Source of the DNA: an uncultured Candidatus Bathyarchaeia archaeon
Lineage (GTDB): Archaea > Thermoproteota > Bathyarchaeia > Bathyarchaeales > Bathycorpusculaceae
Direction: 5' to 3'
DNA: 22,931 nt
Assembly: GCA_964450845.1 (NCBI GenBank)
Contig: CAYVGZ010000009.1
Coordinates: 1 to 22,931 of the forward strand
Below are positions 17,805 to 22,931 of this stretch, in pieces. The position numbers and the translations under genes were made by a program. The notes under the pieces were generated by a model. It did not search any database. It was not told the origin of the DNA and worked only from the letters and a program-made list of their open reading frames with translations. Position 1 is the stretch's first letter. Every line of letters starts with the position of its first letter.

Positions 17805-18437
17805 CTATGTTTTATCGAAAAATTTGCTGTTATTGGAATTAATGACGACATTACTTATTACTTTACACAGAACTTGGAACACTTCTTCGCTGTTCAAATT
17901 GCCTGTGTCCAAAATTAATTTGAATGGTGTGAAATCTTCTCCTAGGCTGAAGCCGTAAAGTTTTTTGTAAATAGTCTTTGTCTGCTTCTCCTTGTTTCTC
18001 AACGCTTTTAAGGCCTCCTCAAAGCTTATTCCGTCTCTATTGGCTATTCTTTCTGCCCTTTTCTCTGGAGAAGCCTCCAACCACACCTTAAAGCCTTCTT
18101 TGAGAAGCCATGGCATAGTCCAGCTATCTAAGATTACATTTCCTTCCTTTGCCAATTCTAAAAATTTCCTATCAACTGCCTCGTCAAATTTCGGGTCTTT
18201 ACCTCTTCTTTCTAGAAAGCGCATTCCTTCCTTGCTTTCCCACCATCCACGTTCAAGGTGTTTGTAGTTTTTTTCTATGGCTAAGGCTTTTAATGCGTTT
18301 CCGCCAGAACAGTATTTGAGCCCATATTTTTCAGCAAGCTTTTTCGCTAAAGTGCTTTTTCCGCTTCCAGCCAGTCCACAGATGCAAATAACTACATGTT
18401 CTTTGATTTTCTTTTTTGCTTTTTTACCTTGAATCAT
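17805..18437 (-). CDS. cmk: Cytidylate kinase (archaeal type)
   Basis: P-loop GLAGSGKST, D..VD, ILDSW, KVWLEAS...RA.RI..RD; canonical position after eL34. Confidence 0.93.
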   Translation of the reverse strand: MIQGKKAKKKIKEHVVICICGLAGSGKSTLAKKLAEKYGLKYCSGGNALKALAIEKNYKHLERGWWESKEGMRFLERRGKDPKFDEAVDRKFLELAKEGNVILDSWTMPWLLKEGFKVWLEASPEKRAERIANRDGISFEEALKALRNKEKQTKTIYKKLYGFSLGEDFTPFKLILDTGNLNSEEVFQVLCKVISNVVINSNNSKFFDKT

Positions 18438-18460: not shown

Positions 18461-18730
18461 TTAAATGGTTCTTGCAGCATGCTTTAGAGCGTTTTTAAGA
18501 CAGTTGTGACATATGTTTCCGCCGTAGAGGCGCCAAATCCTTCTTTTACTTCGGTTAAGTTTGCGTATTTCCACAGGGGTGAGATGTGCTATCCCAGTTA
18601 AGGGTTGGCCGCAAACACCGCATGAAGGCGTTGATGCCATTTCTTTTTTGTAGTAGATTCGGTTTCTGCCGCCTGGCGATTGTTTTTTCAGGCGTTTTTT
18701 GCTTCTGGTTCGTAAATGTGGTTGTGGCAT
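18461..18730 (-). CDS. rpl34e: 50S ribosomal protein L34e
   Basis: MPQPHLRTRS...PGGR...Y, CGVCG, YGGNICHNC. The true start is ATG18730; the ORF-track extension overlaps DUF106. Confidence 0.9.
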   Translation of the reverse strand: MPQPHLRTRSKKRLKKQSPGGRNRIYYKKEMASTPSCGVCGQPLTGIAHLTPVEIRKLNRSKRRIWRLYGGNICHNCLKNALKHAARTI

Positions 18731-18741
18731 TGTTTCGCTTC

Positions 18742-19221
18742 CTATTCTATTGGCATGATGCCTAGTACACGGGATGAAAGTGTTCCAAAGAGAAAAGAAC
18801 AGATGAAATACCACAAAAATACGGTTATTCCTCCAATGCCTGGAATATATGCCACAATATTGTCTCCATATATGGGCATCAGTATAAGCCACCAAACGAA
18901 GATGTAGCTGAAGGAAAGCCCAAACAAGACTAGCTGAGGTTTAGCCATTTTTTTCTGCATATTAAGGATTTGCGACTCCTTCTTTTTCAATTTTTCAACG
19001 AGTTTCTTATCATTCTTGCGCATTGCTTGAGTCATCTGGGCACGATATTCTGAAGTTTCTTTCTGCATTGTTCTATATTGTTCCCAGCCGACAAATCGGC
19101 TTATTAGAAGGCGGTTAATTGAGGAGTTTAGAAATGAAATAGTTATGCAAATTAACATTATTACAAAGGTGGCTACCGGTGCGGTGTCCGGCGTCAAGGA
19201 GAACAATCCAATGAAGTTCAT
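18742..19221 (-). CDS. DUF106 / EMC3-TMCO1 (Oxa1 superfamily) membrane insertase
   Basis: TM-coiled coil-TM topology, Q...M...Q.KP-like motif and WY..CS; SD GGAGAGGGAG; canonical position downstream of secY. Confidence 0.9.
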   Translation of the reverse strand: MNFIGLFSLTPDTAPVATFVIMLICITISFLNSSINRLLISRFVGWEQYRTMQKETSEYRAQMTQAMRKNDKKLVEKLKKKESQILNMQKKMAKPQLVLFGLSFSYIFVWWLILMPIYGDNIVAYIPGIGGITVFLWYFICSFLFGTLSSRVLGIMPIE

Positions 19222-19414: not shown

Positions 19415-20836
19415 CTAGCCTCCGAATATTCGCCTAAAGGCTGGATACATTTCGGCTGCTCTTTCTTGCATTAATAGTTCATAATACTGATAAATTATTC
19501 CCACAGAAAGCAGAATACCCATTCCTGAACCAAAGACTCCGAAGAAATCTGAAACGCCTGCAACCAGCGCTACAATTATTGCACCAAGAACTGTGACAGT
19601 GGGAATATAACGTTTGAGAATCGATTCAACAGCTTTTCCAGATCGTCTATATCCAGGAATCTGCATGCCAGCGCCAACAAGCTGTTTAGCTATAGTTGAC
19701 GGTCCTAAGCCGCCAACCTCGAGCCAAGTAAGCGAAAAAATAATACAAAAAACACTAAGAATTCCAATGTAACCAAAAGCTCTATCTGGACGCGCCACGA
19801 CATCGGCGAGGCTGTGCGGTGAGGTTACATAGTACACGAGCCCTCCGACGGCTTCAGCTGTCTGTTCTGTGCTTCCTTCAGGAGTTATCCATTTATACTG
19901 TCCCAGAAGGTCAAGCCAGAAGTTTTGTCCAGGGGGAGGTTGTCCGTTCATATTCCAGAAGATTTGTGAGAACAAATATACATTAGCGAAGAGAGCGGAC
20001 GCAAAAATTACTGGAAGGTTAGATACATATAAGAGCTTTATAGGGTATCTGCTACGAAAACCTTTGTAACCAGCGTAGGATAATGGCAACTCTACTCTTA
20101 CTCCTTCCATATAGATTATGATTAGAAAAGCAACAATTGTAGCTATGAATCCCAATAAAGATGGATATGAACCTCCTCCAAATACCCACCAGTTTATCGA
20201 CTCGCTCCCAGTAAAAACTAATGTGAGAGCTCCGACGAATAAACCGGTTCCTGGGGAGAAGCATTGCCAGAGAATCTGCTGTGCAACGCCAGCCATGATG
20301 AAGAGGCTTATGCCGCTGCCGAATCCCCAACCCTTTTGAACAAGCTCATCCAATAGCATAATAATAACTCCGGCTGCCAAAAGCTGCATGAAAATAAGTA
20401 TTCTAGTTGTGCCTGACAAGTCACCGTACATTCCGCCGATTATGTAGGCTGATGCTTGAACACCAGTCAGAATTATTGAAAAGACTTTGCTTGCTGTTGT
20501 AAATAAGCCTCTGTCCTCAGGCTTTGACATGTCACACTCTATCATGGCGGAACCAACCAACAGCTGCAGTACTATTCCCGCCGTAACTATTGGACCTATC
20601 CCAAGCTCCGTTAACTTGCCCCTGCTAGAAGCAAAAATTATTGAAAGGGGAGCAAGTTGCTGGATTTGTGTAGTCGGTATACCTACAAGCCAAATCTCAG
20701 ACATTACCAAATAGACGATTAGCACAAGTGCTGTCCAAAAGATTTTCTCGTTAAAGCTGACTCGGCGTTCTGGGGCCTTAATTTCAGGAATACCCCTTGC
20801 AATGGGTCTGAACAGGCTTAAAAATCTACCAGCCAT
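19415..20836 (-). CDS. secY: Preprotein translocase subunit SecY (Sec61alpha)
   Basis: ELGIGPIVTA, GSGISLFI, YPIKLLYVSNLPVIF, IPGYR and GILL.VGI motifs. Confidence 0.98.
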   Translation of the reverse strand: MAGRFLSLFRPIARGIPEIKAPERRVSFNEKIFWTALVLIVYLVMSEIWLVGIPTTQIQQLAPLSIIFASSRGKLTELGIGPIVTAGIVLQLLVGSAMIECDMSKPEDRGLFTTASKVFSIILTGVQASAYIIGGMYGDLSGTTRILIFMQLLAAGVIIMLLDELVQKGWGFGSGISLFIMAGVAQQILWQCFSPGTGLFVGALTLVFTGSESINWWVFGGGSYPSLLGFIATIVAFLIIIYMEGVRVELPLSYAGYKGFRSRYPIKLLYVSNLPVIFASALFANVYLFSQIFWNMNGQPPPGQNFWLDLLGQYKWITPEGSTEQTAEAVGGLVYYVTSPHSLADVVARPDRAFGYIGILSVFCIIFSLTWLEVGGLGPSTIAKQLVGAGMQIPGYRRSGKAVESILKRYIPTVTVLGAIIVALVAGVSDFFGVFGSGMGILLSVGIIYQYYELLMQERAAEMYPAFRRIFGG

Positions 20837-20846
20837 AGGTTAACAT

Positions 20847-21284
20847 CTACGCTCCATGTTTTTGAACTTCCGTCAATATTTGTCCGCCAGCTTCTCTTAT
20901 TTTTTCGGCAGCCGAATTCGAGCATGATGGCACTTTAACGATCAGCGGCTTTGTGACTTTTCCAGTACCAAGAAGCTTAGTGTAACCGAGGCTTTCTAAG
21001 TTTATGAATTTTCCTTCTTCCTTCTCTACCCAAAATTTCTGAGCTATTTCGTCAAGTTTCCCGACGTTTATGACATTTACTTTTTGCCTAAGACTTTTAG
21101 GTGAAGTGAATCCTTTCTTGCCGAAATAATCTGGTTCGTATCTTAAAACGTAGCTCCATCCACCTTTGTGTCGTCCAGCCTTTCGGTATCCTTTAGATCC
21201 GGTGCCTCTATGTTGACCTACTCTGCCGTAGCCATGAGTTCTTGAACCGCGTTTCTTTCTGACTTTTCTGAGTCTATGTGGCAT
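20847..21284 (-). CDS. rpl15: 50S ribosomal protein uL15
   Basis: RKKRGSRTHGYG...HRG, GKKGF, INVGKL, KLLGTG, A.EKI.EAGG. Confidence 0.97.
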   Translation of the reverse strand: MPHRLRKVRKKRGSRTHGYGRVGQHRGTGSKGYRKAGRHKGGWSYVLRYEPDYFGKKGFTSPKSLRQKVNVINVGKLDEIAQKFWVEKEEGKFINLESLGYTKLLGTGKVTKPLIVKVPSCSNSAAEKIREAGGQILTEVQKHGA

Positions 21285-21747
21285 TTTCTAACCCAGCCAT
21301 TTTGCCTACGGCTTTTTCTTCGACACCTTTTTTTAACCTAATTTCAAGTACACCATTCTTATATGCTGTACGTATGCTGTTTGGAATCACTCCCGTAGGA
21401 AGATTTAAACTTTTATGGTATTTTCGATTCAAAGCCCTAGCGGTCAAAGTTAAACGTTGATTTCTTACGTGGACTCTTAGGTTTTCCCTGTTGAACCCTA
21501 CAAATTCAGCAACAATTATTACTTCGTCCTTTTCTTCGAGAACATCCACTAGGGGTTCCGGCTCCGTCCACTTTCTTTCTCTATAAATTTTCTGAACTTT
21601 ATATAGGTATGGATGTGGGTGTCTTTTAACTCTGGAATTTTTGATTCGGAATGTTTGAGAAGCTTTTTTATTCTCAACTCTTTTCAAGGCTTTAAAAATG
21701 TTGAGCCTTTTGGGATGTTTTTTGCTTCTTCGCCACTTCGCACTCAA
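21274..21747 (-). CDS. Hsp20/alpha-crystallin-domain protein with very basic N-terminal arm
   Basis: EPLVDV.E...V.IVAE..G...E.L.V...Y.K...LP......YKNGVLEI.L.K. TTG21747 follows SD GAGGAGG. The stop overlaps the uL15 start by 11 nt. Confidence 0.85.
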   Translation of the reverse strand: MSAKWRRSKKHPKRLNIFKALKRVENKKASQTFRIKNSRVKRHPHPYLYKVQKIYRERKWTEPEPLVDVLEEKDEVIIVAEFVGFNRENLRVHVRNQRLTLTARALNRKYHKSLNLPTGVIPNSIRTAYKNGVLEIRLKKGVEEKAVGKMAGLENAT

Positions 21748-21787
21748 TGTTTCCTCCTCCTCGGATACAATGGCATTCCAAAAGTAG

Positions 21788-21794
21788 TTATAAA
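21788..21794 (-). promoter_or_regulatory. Putative internal TATA box upstream of the Hsp20-fold gene
   Basis: TTTATAA in the 80-nt uL30-hsp20 gap, preceded by the T-rich TTTATTTT just after the uL30 stop. Confidence 0.45.
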
Positions 21795-21827
21795 GCATAT
21801 CGCAAACAAGCATGTTAAAATAAAGGC

Positions 21828-22313
21828 TTAGATCATTCGTTTTATCAGTTCGCTGATTTTTTCTCCTCGGTATCCTAACTCGCCGCCCGCGCCATAGCCC
21901 CTTTTTATTTTTCCTTTGAAACCCTTGCTTGGTGGGTGCAACTTAAAAACTGGCTGCACGCTTGGTAGCTTGCGATATTCAACGCTGCAGTTAAAAATTG
22001 CTTCTGCAAGTTCATCTAGCGATTTAAAGTTGGCAGTCTGCGCATATTCTTCTGTTAACTTCTTGTTTCCAACAAGTTTTCCTTTCTTTCTTATTAGTAT
22101 ATCCACAATTTCTTTTGATGCTTCACCCCACGTAATGAAATTCTGTGCTGTTTTCAACATTCCAAGGAATGATGGATGATTGTCGATTAACACAGCATAA
22201 TTATTTCTTGTTAAGTGAAGCATTTGCAGGGTTTCTCTAACATCCCGCGAGGCCCTAACTGTTCCACGAACTCTTACAGCACAAATGCATTTGCGTTCCT
22301 TAGTTTCAGCCAC
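21828..22313 (-). CDS. rpl30: 50S ribosomal protein uL30 (long archaeal form)
   Basis: AVRVRG, TL.MLHL, GML..A..FITWGE, FKLHPP.KGF, GGELGYRGE.I.ELI.RMI; GTG start directly follows the uS5 stop. Confidence 0.97.
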   Translation of the reverse strand: MAETKERKCICAVRVRGTVRASRDVRETLQMLHLTRNNYAVLIDNHPSFLGMLKTAQNFITWGEASKEIVDILIRKKGKLVGNKKLTEEYAQTANFKSLDELAEAIFNCSVEYRKLPSVQPVFKLHPPSKGFKGKIKRGYGAGGELGYRGEKISELIKRMI

Positions 22314-22931
22314 TTATTTCACCCAATCTACTGGAGTTATGAGGCTGTAAGTTTTCTTTAACGCGTCGAAAATGGCATATGCAAAGGAGGGAACAGTTCT
22401 TGTTGAACCATAACTTCTGGTCCAGCAGTCTTTTATGCCAGCAAGGCCTAGAATTACTTTGGCAACTTCGCTTGCGACCAGACCTAAGCCTCGTGGTCCA
22501 GGAACGATAATTATTTTTACGCTGCCACATTTTCCTTCAACTTGAAATGGTACTGAATGGGGGTTTCCACAGCCGCACTCCCAACTTCCACATCCCCGTC
22601 TTACCGGAACAATTTTCAAGCGGGCGTCTACTGCAGCTTTTTCTATGGCTGTTCGCACCTGGCTTGCCTTTCCAGCACCCAAGCCTATGTAGCCGTCTCT
22701 GTTTCCAACGGCAACTATTGCCTTAAACCTTGATTTTTCGCCCGCGTCTGTCTGTTTTTGAACTAGGTTTATGTTTATGACTTCTTCCTGTAAGTCTGGA
22801 AGTAGCGCATCCACAATTTGTGGTTCGCGTAATTGTAAGCCTCCCATAAAAACTTCTTCAATAGACGTAATTCTGCCTTCTTGAATCATTTTTCCTAGCT
22901 GGGTTCTAGGAACCCACTGCTCTAAACTTTC
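22314..22931 (-). CDS. rps5: 30S ribosomal protein uS5 (5' partial, runs off window)
   Basis: WVPRTQLGK is open to the window edge; QKQTDAGEKSRF, RGCGSWEC, PGPRGLGL. Confidence 0.97.
   Translation of the reverse strand, partial: ESLEQWVPRTQLGKMIQEGRITSIEEVFMGGLQLREPQIVDALLPDLQEEVININLVQKQTDAGEKSRFKAIVAVGNRDGYIGLGAGKASQVRTAIEKAAVDARLKIVPVRRGCGSWECGCGNPHSVPFQVEGKCGSVKIIIVPGPRGLGLVASEVAKVILGLAGIKDCWTRSYGSTRTVPSFAYAIFDALKKTYSLITPVDWVK

Follow-up and report, generated by a model that had tools for sequence, protein, structure and literature searches.

A polybasic Hsp20 derivative encoded directly ahead of uL15 and secY in Bathyarchaeia: a candidate RNA- or ribosome-binding protein

The X-uL15-secY locus and its conservation

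In an uncultured Candidatus Bathyarchaeia archaeon of the family Bathycorpusculaceae, the ribosomal spc cluster contains, between the genes for the ribosomal proteins uL30 and uL15, a gene for a 157-residue polybasic derivative of the small heat shock protein (sHSP) Hsp20, which we refer to here as X. The window analyzed, a stretch of 22,931 nucleotides (nt; assembly GCA_964450845.1, contig CAYVGZ010000009.1, positions 1 to 22,931), carries X on its reverse strand at 21274..21747, with a TTG start codon and a TAG stop codon. The neighbouring genes uS5 (22314-22889), uL30 (21828..22313; PF00327, E 5.4e-10), uL15 (20847..21284; PF00828, E 1.9e-16), and secY (19415..20836; PF00344, E 4.8e-70) lie on the same strand, as do all features of X described below, and secY is the third gene of an X-uL15-secY unit. 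From their coordinates, uL30 lies 80 nt upstream of X, and the end of X overlaps the start of uL15 by 11 nt (21274-21284), including the X stop codon. An earlier reading of the DNA alone, hereafter the original prediction, had placed a 157-residue α-crystallin-domain gene between uL30 and uL15 with an 11-nt overlap of the uL15 start, and the open reading frame (ORF) and its translation, the match to the Pfam HSP20 family (PF00011), and the coordinates all agree with this.

The longest frame of the X ORF extends to 21813 and would encode 179 residues. We set the start of X at the TTG at 21745-21747 based on its homologues, whose conserved N-terminus, (M/L/V)SAKWRR, begins there, on the presence in two relatives of a stop codon immediately ahead of this position, and on a GGAGG-type Shine-Dalgarno sequence. 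In the window, the Shine-Dalgarno-like sequence GAGGAGGAGG (21753..21762) can be read 5 nt ahead of the TTG, and the relatives of X keep GGAGG or GGGGG at similar spacing, with the GGAGG-type sequence 5-8 nt upstream of the start. Start codons within the X clade (the window and loci L073-L152) are mostly non-AUG (n = 75; TTG 42, ATG 25, GTG 3, ACG 3, CTG 1, and TTA 1). The ACG and CTG codons occupy the same position as the start codons of the other relatives and have the same Shine-Dalgarno sequence ahead of them.

HSP20 was the sole Pfam family matched by X at E <= 0.01 (E 1.6e-8; 35 bits against a gathering cut-off of 20.8; residues 91-167 of the 179-residue frame). An AlphaFold2 model of X built with 81 sequences, together with sequence composition, divides the protein into a polybasic arm (codons 1-61; 21565..21747), an α-crystallin domain (codons 62-141; 21325..21564), and a C-terminal tail that lacks the IXI/V motif (codons 142-157 and the stop codon; 21274..21324), the last 11 nt of which overlap the uL15 start. 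The arm, with a predicted local distance difference test (pLDDT) score of 43-56, is predicted to be disordered; it opens with a conserved MSAKWRRSKKxxKW(L/F)D start over its first ~16 residues and continues as a variable Lys/Arg-rich linker. In agreement with the highly basic N-terminus originally described, the 61 residues ahead of the domain contain 22 Lys or Arg versus 2 Asp or Glu. Residues 62-141 were modelled with a pLDDT of ~90 or more as a seven-stranded β-sandwich with a short β5-β7 loop. The top Foldseek match of the model was the α-crystallin domain of Sulfolobus solfataricus Hsp20.1 (4RZK; 45% identity, template modelling (TM) score 0.83, root-mean-square deviation 1.5 Å), and all top matches were sHSPs. 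The CS domain of Sgt1 appeared at rank 37 (TM score 0.75, 19% identity), so that the suggested kinship of X to CS/p23 domains such as those of Sgt1 and Shq1 holds at the level of a related β-sandwich fold only: X has no CS match in Pfam, and its nearest structure is an sHSP. When compared with NF041800, the NCBIfam equivalog of archaeal Hsp20 (162 profile positions, cut-off 140 bits), X scored 86.9 bits over positions 70-153 only, and members of the X clade scored 85-88 bits, covering positions 67-155 only.

Searching a large protein collection returned 514 homologues of X, the best 120 of which were at least 58% identical over 87-100% of its length, arm included. Ratios of nonsynonymous to synonymous divergence (dN/dS), calculated pairwise for 130 pairs, came to 0.30 in the arm, compared with 0.12 in the domain. 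X is under purifying selection, with both parts constrained and the arm more loosely, as expected of a charge-driven disordered segment. Based on the homologues and the selection acting on it, X is not a chance ORF. We also observed in the codon alignment that, within the same genome pairs, the arm often had a far higher synonymous divergence than the domain (for example 0.76 versus 0.13), which could reflect either constraint on synonymous sites or noise in the arm alignment.

To define the distribution of X, 200 genomes of the class Bathyarchaeia were surveyed, including 27 from the window's own family. Full-length X was present in 26 of these 27 and in one genome of a sister family, while matches elsewhere were to the domain only. 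The remaining own-family genome also lacked a detectable uL15, and its X locus is probably unassembled. uL15 and then secY directly followed X in 25 of the 26 own-family genomes that carry it, and in the 26th the contig ends inside X. A species-level scan with one genome per species yielded 80 X loci, nearly all labelled Bathyarchaeia or Bathyarchaeota. uL15 directly followed X in all 80, the tblastn ends of the two genes lying -7 to +58 nt apart, and secY came after uL15 at every locus long enough to show it. In contrast, uL30 lay within 400 nt upstream of X at 45 of the 80 loci and was not found within 2.5 kb at 24. Where the uL30 junction is broken, unrelated genes precede X, including those for an SMC-like ATPase and small toxin-antitoxin-like ORFs. 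As uL15 and secY always follow X and the uL30 junction is often broken, the invariant unit is X-uL15-secY and the uL30-X junction is breakable. The gene order of X and uL15 originally noted in this one genome thus recurs across these species, and this breadth, together with the retention of the arm's charge and first ~16 residues and the dN/dS of 0.30, clearly speaks against an insertion unique to one genome with an unconserved arm.

Downstream of secY, the window contains a gene for an EMC3/TMCO1-like membrane protein, a putative insertase (18742-19221; PF01956), an ORF at 18461-18895 whose C-terminal part resembles the ribosomal protein eL34, and a cytidylate-kinase-like gene (17805-18437). 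An adenylate kinase gene does not directly follow secY in the window.

Remodelling of an Hsp20 in an old operon slot

The original prediction took uS5-uL30-uL15-secY to be normally contiguous. We examined the region upstream of uL15 in 40 genomes from 29 other families of the class, and uL30 and uL15 were indeed contiguous in 16 of these families. Seven further families, or eight when the sister family is included, have a gene of ~175 codons that either separates uL30 from uL15 or immediately precedes uL15, and the remaining families were ambiguous or showed only a larger gap. Most copies in this slot share the architecture MSDWW-x-RRRRR-xx-WF-x-DIFDEFER-x-EEMMDEMM, followed by YVYGFS-x-SIGPDGKP-x-IREFGN, the α-crystallin domain, and a tail ending in I-K-I-E. 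Three of these spc-linked copies were tested against NF041800 and scored 183-202 bits, all above the 140-bit cut-off, identifying them as canonical Hsp20s. Outside the class, an Hsp20 gene before uL15 was found in five further families of the phylum Thermoproteota, three of which have the full uS5-uL30-Hsp20-uL15 order. The contiguity of the cluster therefore has a large and old class of exceptions that carry this insertion. Two of the slots in other families were unusual. In one genome (L053; G002:C19, family f8) the spc-linked Hsp20, which has a long branch in the tree, is shortened to 146 residues, with the acidic helix missing and the middle segment reduced. In another (L050; G031, family f22) a ~670-nt spacer between uL30 (852-1328) and uL15 (1998-2417) gave no match to the Hsp20 query.

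The insertion is not a novelty of one lineage, as canonical Hsp20s are found before uL15 in many Thermoproteota families. In Thorarchaeota and an Odinarchaeote, the S10-spc cluster has also been described as containing an added HSP20 gene, with horizontal transfer suggested (2023; PMC10833476), so that the presence of Hsp20 in the spc cluster is already published for Asgard archaea. There, the family member added to the conserved ribosomal cluster is treated as an unusual horizontal acquisition of a few Asgard genomes, whereas here an Hsp20 gene in the slot is found in many Thermoproteota families, a conserved upstream element precedes it, and in the case of X the protein itself is remodelled. 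What we add is the invariant X-uL15-secY unit, the TATA-like element ahead of it, a framework of two paralogs, an intermediate form, the charge and selection figures, and the phylum-wide extent of the canonical arrangement.

Alignment of X with the canonical spc-linked Hsp20s revealed homology over the whole length of the protein. The α-crystallin domain is kept, as is the N-terminal motif, with MSAKWRRSKKxxKW(L/F)D of X aligning with MSDWWxRRRRRxxWFxDIF of the canonical copies. The acidic amphipathic N-terminal helix is gone from X and a basic, variable linker stands in its place, while a 17-residue block of the GPDGKP segment is deleted. The AELPGVEKEDI sequence of the domain has become AE(I/F)(A/V)GFN(K/R)E-x-L in the X clade, confirming that AELPG reads AEFVG in the window copy. 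Comparing 71 X-clade sequences with nine canonical spc-linked copies, the net charge of the arm was +16.3 over 58 residues versus +1.7 over 82 residues, that of the domain averaged +5.2 (window copy, +4) versus -3.2, and the mean isoelectric point (pI) of the whole protein was 10.4 versus 7.0. An [IVL]x[IVL] motif was present in the tail of none of the 71 X-clade sequences and all nine canonical copies. The window copy has a pI of 10.65 and 24% Lys plus Arg, compared to 10.41 and 22% for uL15, and the hydrophobic (0.31) and aromatic (0.11) fractions of its arm are both below those of the canonical copies. The description of the arm as unlike usual sHSP N-termini thus stands for its charge, which is derived, but not for the N-terminal W-RRR-W motif, which is ancestral in the archaeal Hsp20 family.

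The closest known relatives of X are the Sulfolobus-type archaeal Hsp20s (NF041800; 4RZK; S. acidocaldarius saci_0922), which share with it the same core with a short β5-β7 loop and the N-terminal W-RRR-W-(F/L)-D motif, and canonical members of which occupy the same slot before uL15. X differs from them in having neither an acidic helix nor a GPDGKP segment nor an IXI tail, and in its pI of ~10.4 versus ~7. A protein from the sister family (L030) is intermediate between the two forms: FDIFDDIEK is still present in it, together with some of the middle segment and a tail that reads I-V-L. Separately, another own-family genome encodes a 239-residue Hsp20-domain protein (L159; G008:C66:29164-30318) with a long Lys/Pro-rich N-terminal region, no IXI tail, and a very long branch, which may be a second, independent basic-arm variant.

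The genome that carries the window encodes, on another contig, a second, canonical Hsp20 (G000 C2:42893-43414; L001/L153, C2:42818-43417), which scored 179 bits against NF041800. This protein belongs to a type of ~200 residues, here called type B, that is distinguished by an additional VRERKLPDGS-x-REWGPFVYGYS insert and a PINIE tail. Type B copies occur across Bathyarchaeia families and never adjoined uL15 at the loci seen. A third, weak α-crystallin match in the genome (G000 C3:9334-9630; L155), of 27.6 bits to NF041800, lies within an open frame of 282 residues. In a tree of 58 Hsp20 sequences, X and the intermediate form grouped in one clade (support 99/93), apart from a type B clade (100/100) that held all of the ~200-residue copies not linked to the spc cluster, including that of this genome. 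The comparison with canonical Hsp20s that the original prediction had looked to places X, with the intermediate form, in a separate clade. The canonical spc-linked type was unresolved between the two clades. We considered whether X is a recent duplicate of the other Hsp20 in its genome and rejected this, as that copy falls in the distinct type B clade. The position, N-terminus, and intermediate form of X instead point to descent from a spc-linked canonical Hsp20, although the tree alone is no proof of this, the stem of X being long.

A conserved element upstream of X

The element GCGATATGCTTTATA (21789..21803) lies 41 nt ahead of the X start codon and is conserved in relatives of X. Its consensus, CGATAYNYTTTAWD, was present in all 81 X upstream regions analyzed. 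Its 3' end is separated from the start codon by 36-49 nt (median 40), both at loci with uL30 upstream and at those without. A stricter form, GCGATAYNYTTTAWA, has a single occurrence in the 1.64-Mb genome, at 21789-21803. In other families, the canonical Hsp20 of this slot has related boxes, CGATACATTTATAG and CGATACGTTTTATAA, ahead of it, indicating that the element predates the remodelling of X. Its sequence and spacing fit an archaeal promoter composed of a B recognition element (BRE) and a TATA box, and would place the transcript start ~15-20 nt before the start codon. This reading leans on general knowledge of archaeal promoters. We also considered whether the element marks a shared regulon, but its single genomic occurrence ties X to neither heat-shock genes nor other ribosomal operons.

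Between the TATA-like box and the Shine-Dalgarno sequence lies a conserved stretch, TGCCATTGTATC or CGTTAGTTAATTGG. RNAalifold predicted 0 pairs, and hence no consensus RNA fold, from 50 aligned X leaders, and an Rfam search of the uL30-X spacer gave no match near threshold. A GATACA/TGTATC stem that was spotted by eye in the leader is missing from half of the clade and was discarded. An oligo-T tract, TTTATTTT, occupies part of the region between the uL30 stop codon and the TATA-like box (21804-21827). Runs of at least four T occur within 45 nt upstream of the box at 68 of 81 loci, and runs of at least five at 25 of 81; such a tract could be an archaeal terminator of the upstream unit. A scan for bacterial-type promoters and terminators found nothing above shuffled controls, a method that is not applicable to archaea.

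Candidate roles of X

We tentatively favour, at slightly less than an even chance, the reading that X is a neofunctionalised RNA- or ribosome-binding protein of the sHSP fold that is made together with uL15. In this model, a canonical archaeal Hsp20 that had long occupied the slot before uL15 would have given rise to X, which would then have gained a new function. Rather than forming shells of 12 or 24 subunits, X would bind a polyanion as a monomer or dimer. This polyanion would most probably be ribosomal RNA (rRNA) or the ribosome, in which case X would associate with the ribosome as a factor, help in its assembly, or be a lineage-specific ribosomal protein. X would be the leading gene of the X-uL15-secY unit, transcribed from its own promoter and translated in a fixed ratio to uL15 via start/stop coupling, while the general stress function would be carried by the canonical paralog.

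The shift to a basic protein without an IXI motif does speak against an ordinary holdase of the cage-forming kind. The IXI/V motif of sHSPs docks in the groove between β4 and β8 and builds oligomers; proteins mutated in this motif are usually impaired in both oligomerisation and chaperone activity (PMC10474464). The Hsp20 of Sulfolobus, for example, assembles into 24-mers, acts as a holdase, and binds membranes (PMC9133787). The α-crystallin fold can also serve in RNA recognition, as a cation-rich region of the α-crystallin domain of Escherichia coli IbpA binds mRNA (PMC10474464). IbpA differs from X in that it keeps the IXI motif, oligomerises, and remains a sequestrase, X is far more basic, and the two are homologous at the family level only. 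The ribosome- or RNA-related role that the original prediction had offered is compatible with the conserved arm, the basic IXI-less form, and the constant linkage to uL15, features from which binding of X to RNA or the ribosome is inferred.

Several results weigh against this reading. A profile of the X clade searched against all solved structures returned 17 PDB sequences, each of which is an sHSP, and none from a solved ribosome. For the arm by itself, no relative was detectable: its best hit had an E of 0.76 in a PDB sequence search, and its best score in the ESM Atlas was 0.82, below the useful range. The Sulfolobus Hsp20 of the same family has no reported link to the ribosome in addition to its holdase and membrane-binding activities (PMC9133787). 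Since many lineages have a canonical acidic Hsp20 at this place in the operon, the position implies no ribosomal role by itself. X also evolves faster than its ribosomal neighbours, with identities to the window copy of 41-80% across the 80 loci versus 53-90% for uL15. Codon adaptation gives no help, since eight ribosomal genes of the contig fell at percentiles 6-80 of the genome, with X at percentile 37, which makes the measure uninformative on expression level here. Likewise, complex prediction of X with uL15, both given as alignments, scored 0.00 and is evidence neither way.

A more specific proposal, which we consider unlikely, is that X is a lineage-specific component of the large subunit in Bathyarchaeia or a constitutive ribosome-bound factor. 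X has the circumstantial traits of a ribosomal protein, being very basic, lineage-wide, and encoded in a ribosomal operon, although these are suggestive and not defining. In particular, it resembles uL15-type proteins in size, pI, Lys plus Arg content, its disordered basic arm, lineage-wide presence, and location in a ribosomal operon with putative translational coupling, and differs from ribosomal proteins in the two respects given above, the missing match among solved ribosome chains and its faster evolution. We know of no ribosomal protein with an α-crystallin fold, nor of a ribosome preparation or structure from Bathyarchaeia. In a variant of the same proposal, the vacant β4/β8 groove of X would capture the IXI tail of the paralog and so tether sHSP activity to ribosomes.

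A different possibility, and one we hold to be rather unlikely, is that X is still an ATP-independent holdase, a dimeric or small-oligomer sHSP whose polybasic arm tunes its clients (for example acidic or nascent proteins) and which, like canonical Hsp20 elsewhere in archaea, is expressed along with the machinery of translation and secretion. Consistent with this are the intact core, 45% identical to the α-crystallin domain of Hsp20.1, the retained W-RRR-W motif, the canonical Hsp20s in the same slot in many families, and the report that the dimer is the active form of archaeal sHSPs (PMC9133787). However, all three accessory elements for assembly or client capture are lost from X, a canonical paralog in the same genome already fills the holdase role, and the charge reversal covers the surface of the domain and not the arm alone. 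The original prediction had further suggested a dedicated chaperone of ribosomal proteins, which would accompany uL15 or one of the others until it is assembled. Known dedicated chaperones of ribosomal proteins are acidic and shield basic extensions with acidic surfaces. X and uL15 are both strongly basic (pI 10.65 and 10.41), which makes such an escort electrostatically unlikely, and despite the chaperone-type fold of X, its constant adjacency to uL15, and their overlapping start and stop codons, we regard this role as highly improbable.

We think it improbable that X is an RNA-binding autoregulator acting on the leader of the X-uL15-secY mRNA to set translation of the unit, after the manner of IbpA, which represses its own translation from its 5' untranslated region (UTR) through the cationic region of its α-crystallin domain (PMC10474464). 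The conserved region upstream of X, its leading cistron, contains the TGCCATTGTATC/CGTTAGTTAATTGG stretch, and weak start codons predominate in its clade (TTG, 42/75). Set against this, the leader has neither a conserved secondary structure nor an Rfam match, the inferred 5' UTR spans just ~15-20 nt, and the net charge of X, ~+21, seems to us beyond the need of a specific operator binder. Similarly low in probability is a factor associated with the membrane or translocon, in which the basic arm would sit on anionic lipids near SecY and extend the membrane role of Sulfolobus Hsp20. The S. acidocaldarius protein stabilises membranes to which it binds (PMC9133787), the linkage of X to secY is constant, and the EMC3/TMCO1-like insertase gene follows at 18742-19221. 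The uL15-secY tail is, however, the standard archaeal order of the spc cluster with or without Hsp20 and so indicates no specific link; in addition, no segment of the arm is amphipathic or hydrophobic, and X is coupled to uL15 rather than to secY.

If X is indeed an RNA- or ribosome-binding protein, it would represent a chaperone caught in the process of turning into one, with the canonical, intermediate, and fully basic, IXI-less stages all extant. Were it a component of the large subunit, which would be highly interesting, it would be the first ribosomal protein built on an α-crystallin fold, derived from a chaperone gene in the spc operon that predates the split of the Thermoproteota classes. 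The cluster Hsp20 of Asgard archaea, published as a horizontal transfer, would be recast as part of an old, widely kept linkage of an sHSP to uL15 and secY with its own conserved upstream element. This raises the question of why an sHSP is co-expressed with exit-side and translocon genes in so many archaea. Lineage-specific ribosomal proteins of archaea are still being discovered, and Bathyarchaeia are abundant and barely cultured; for both reasons, a candidate flagged by genomics alone is useful.

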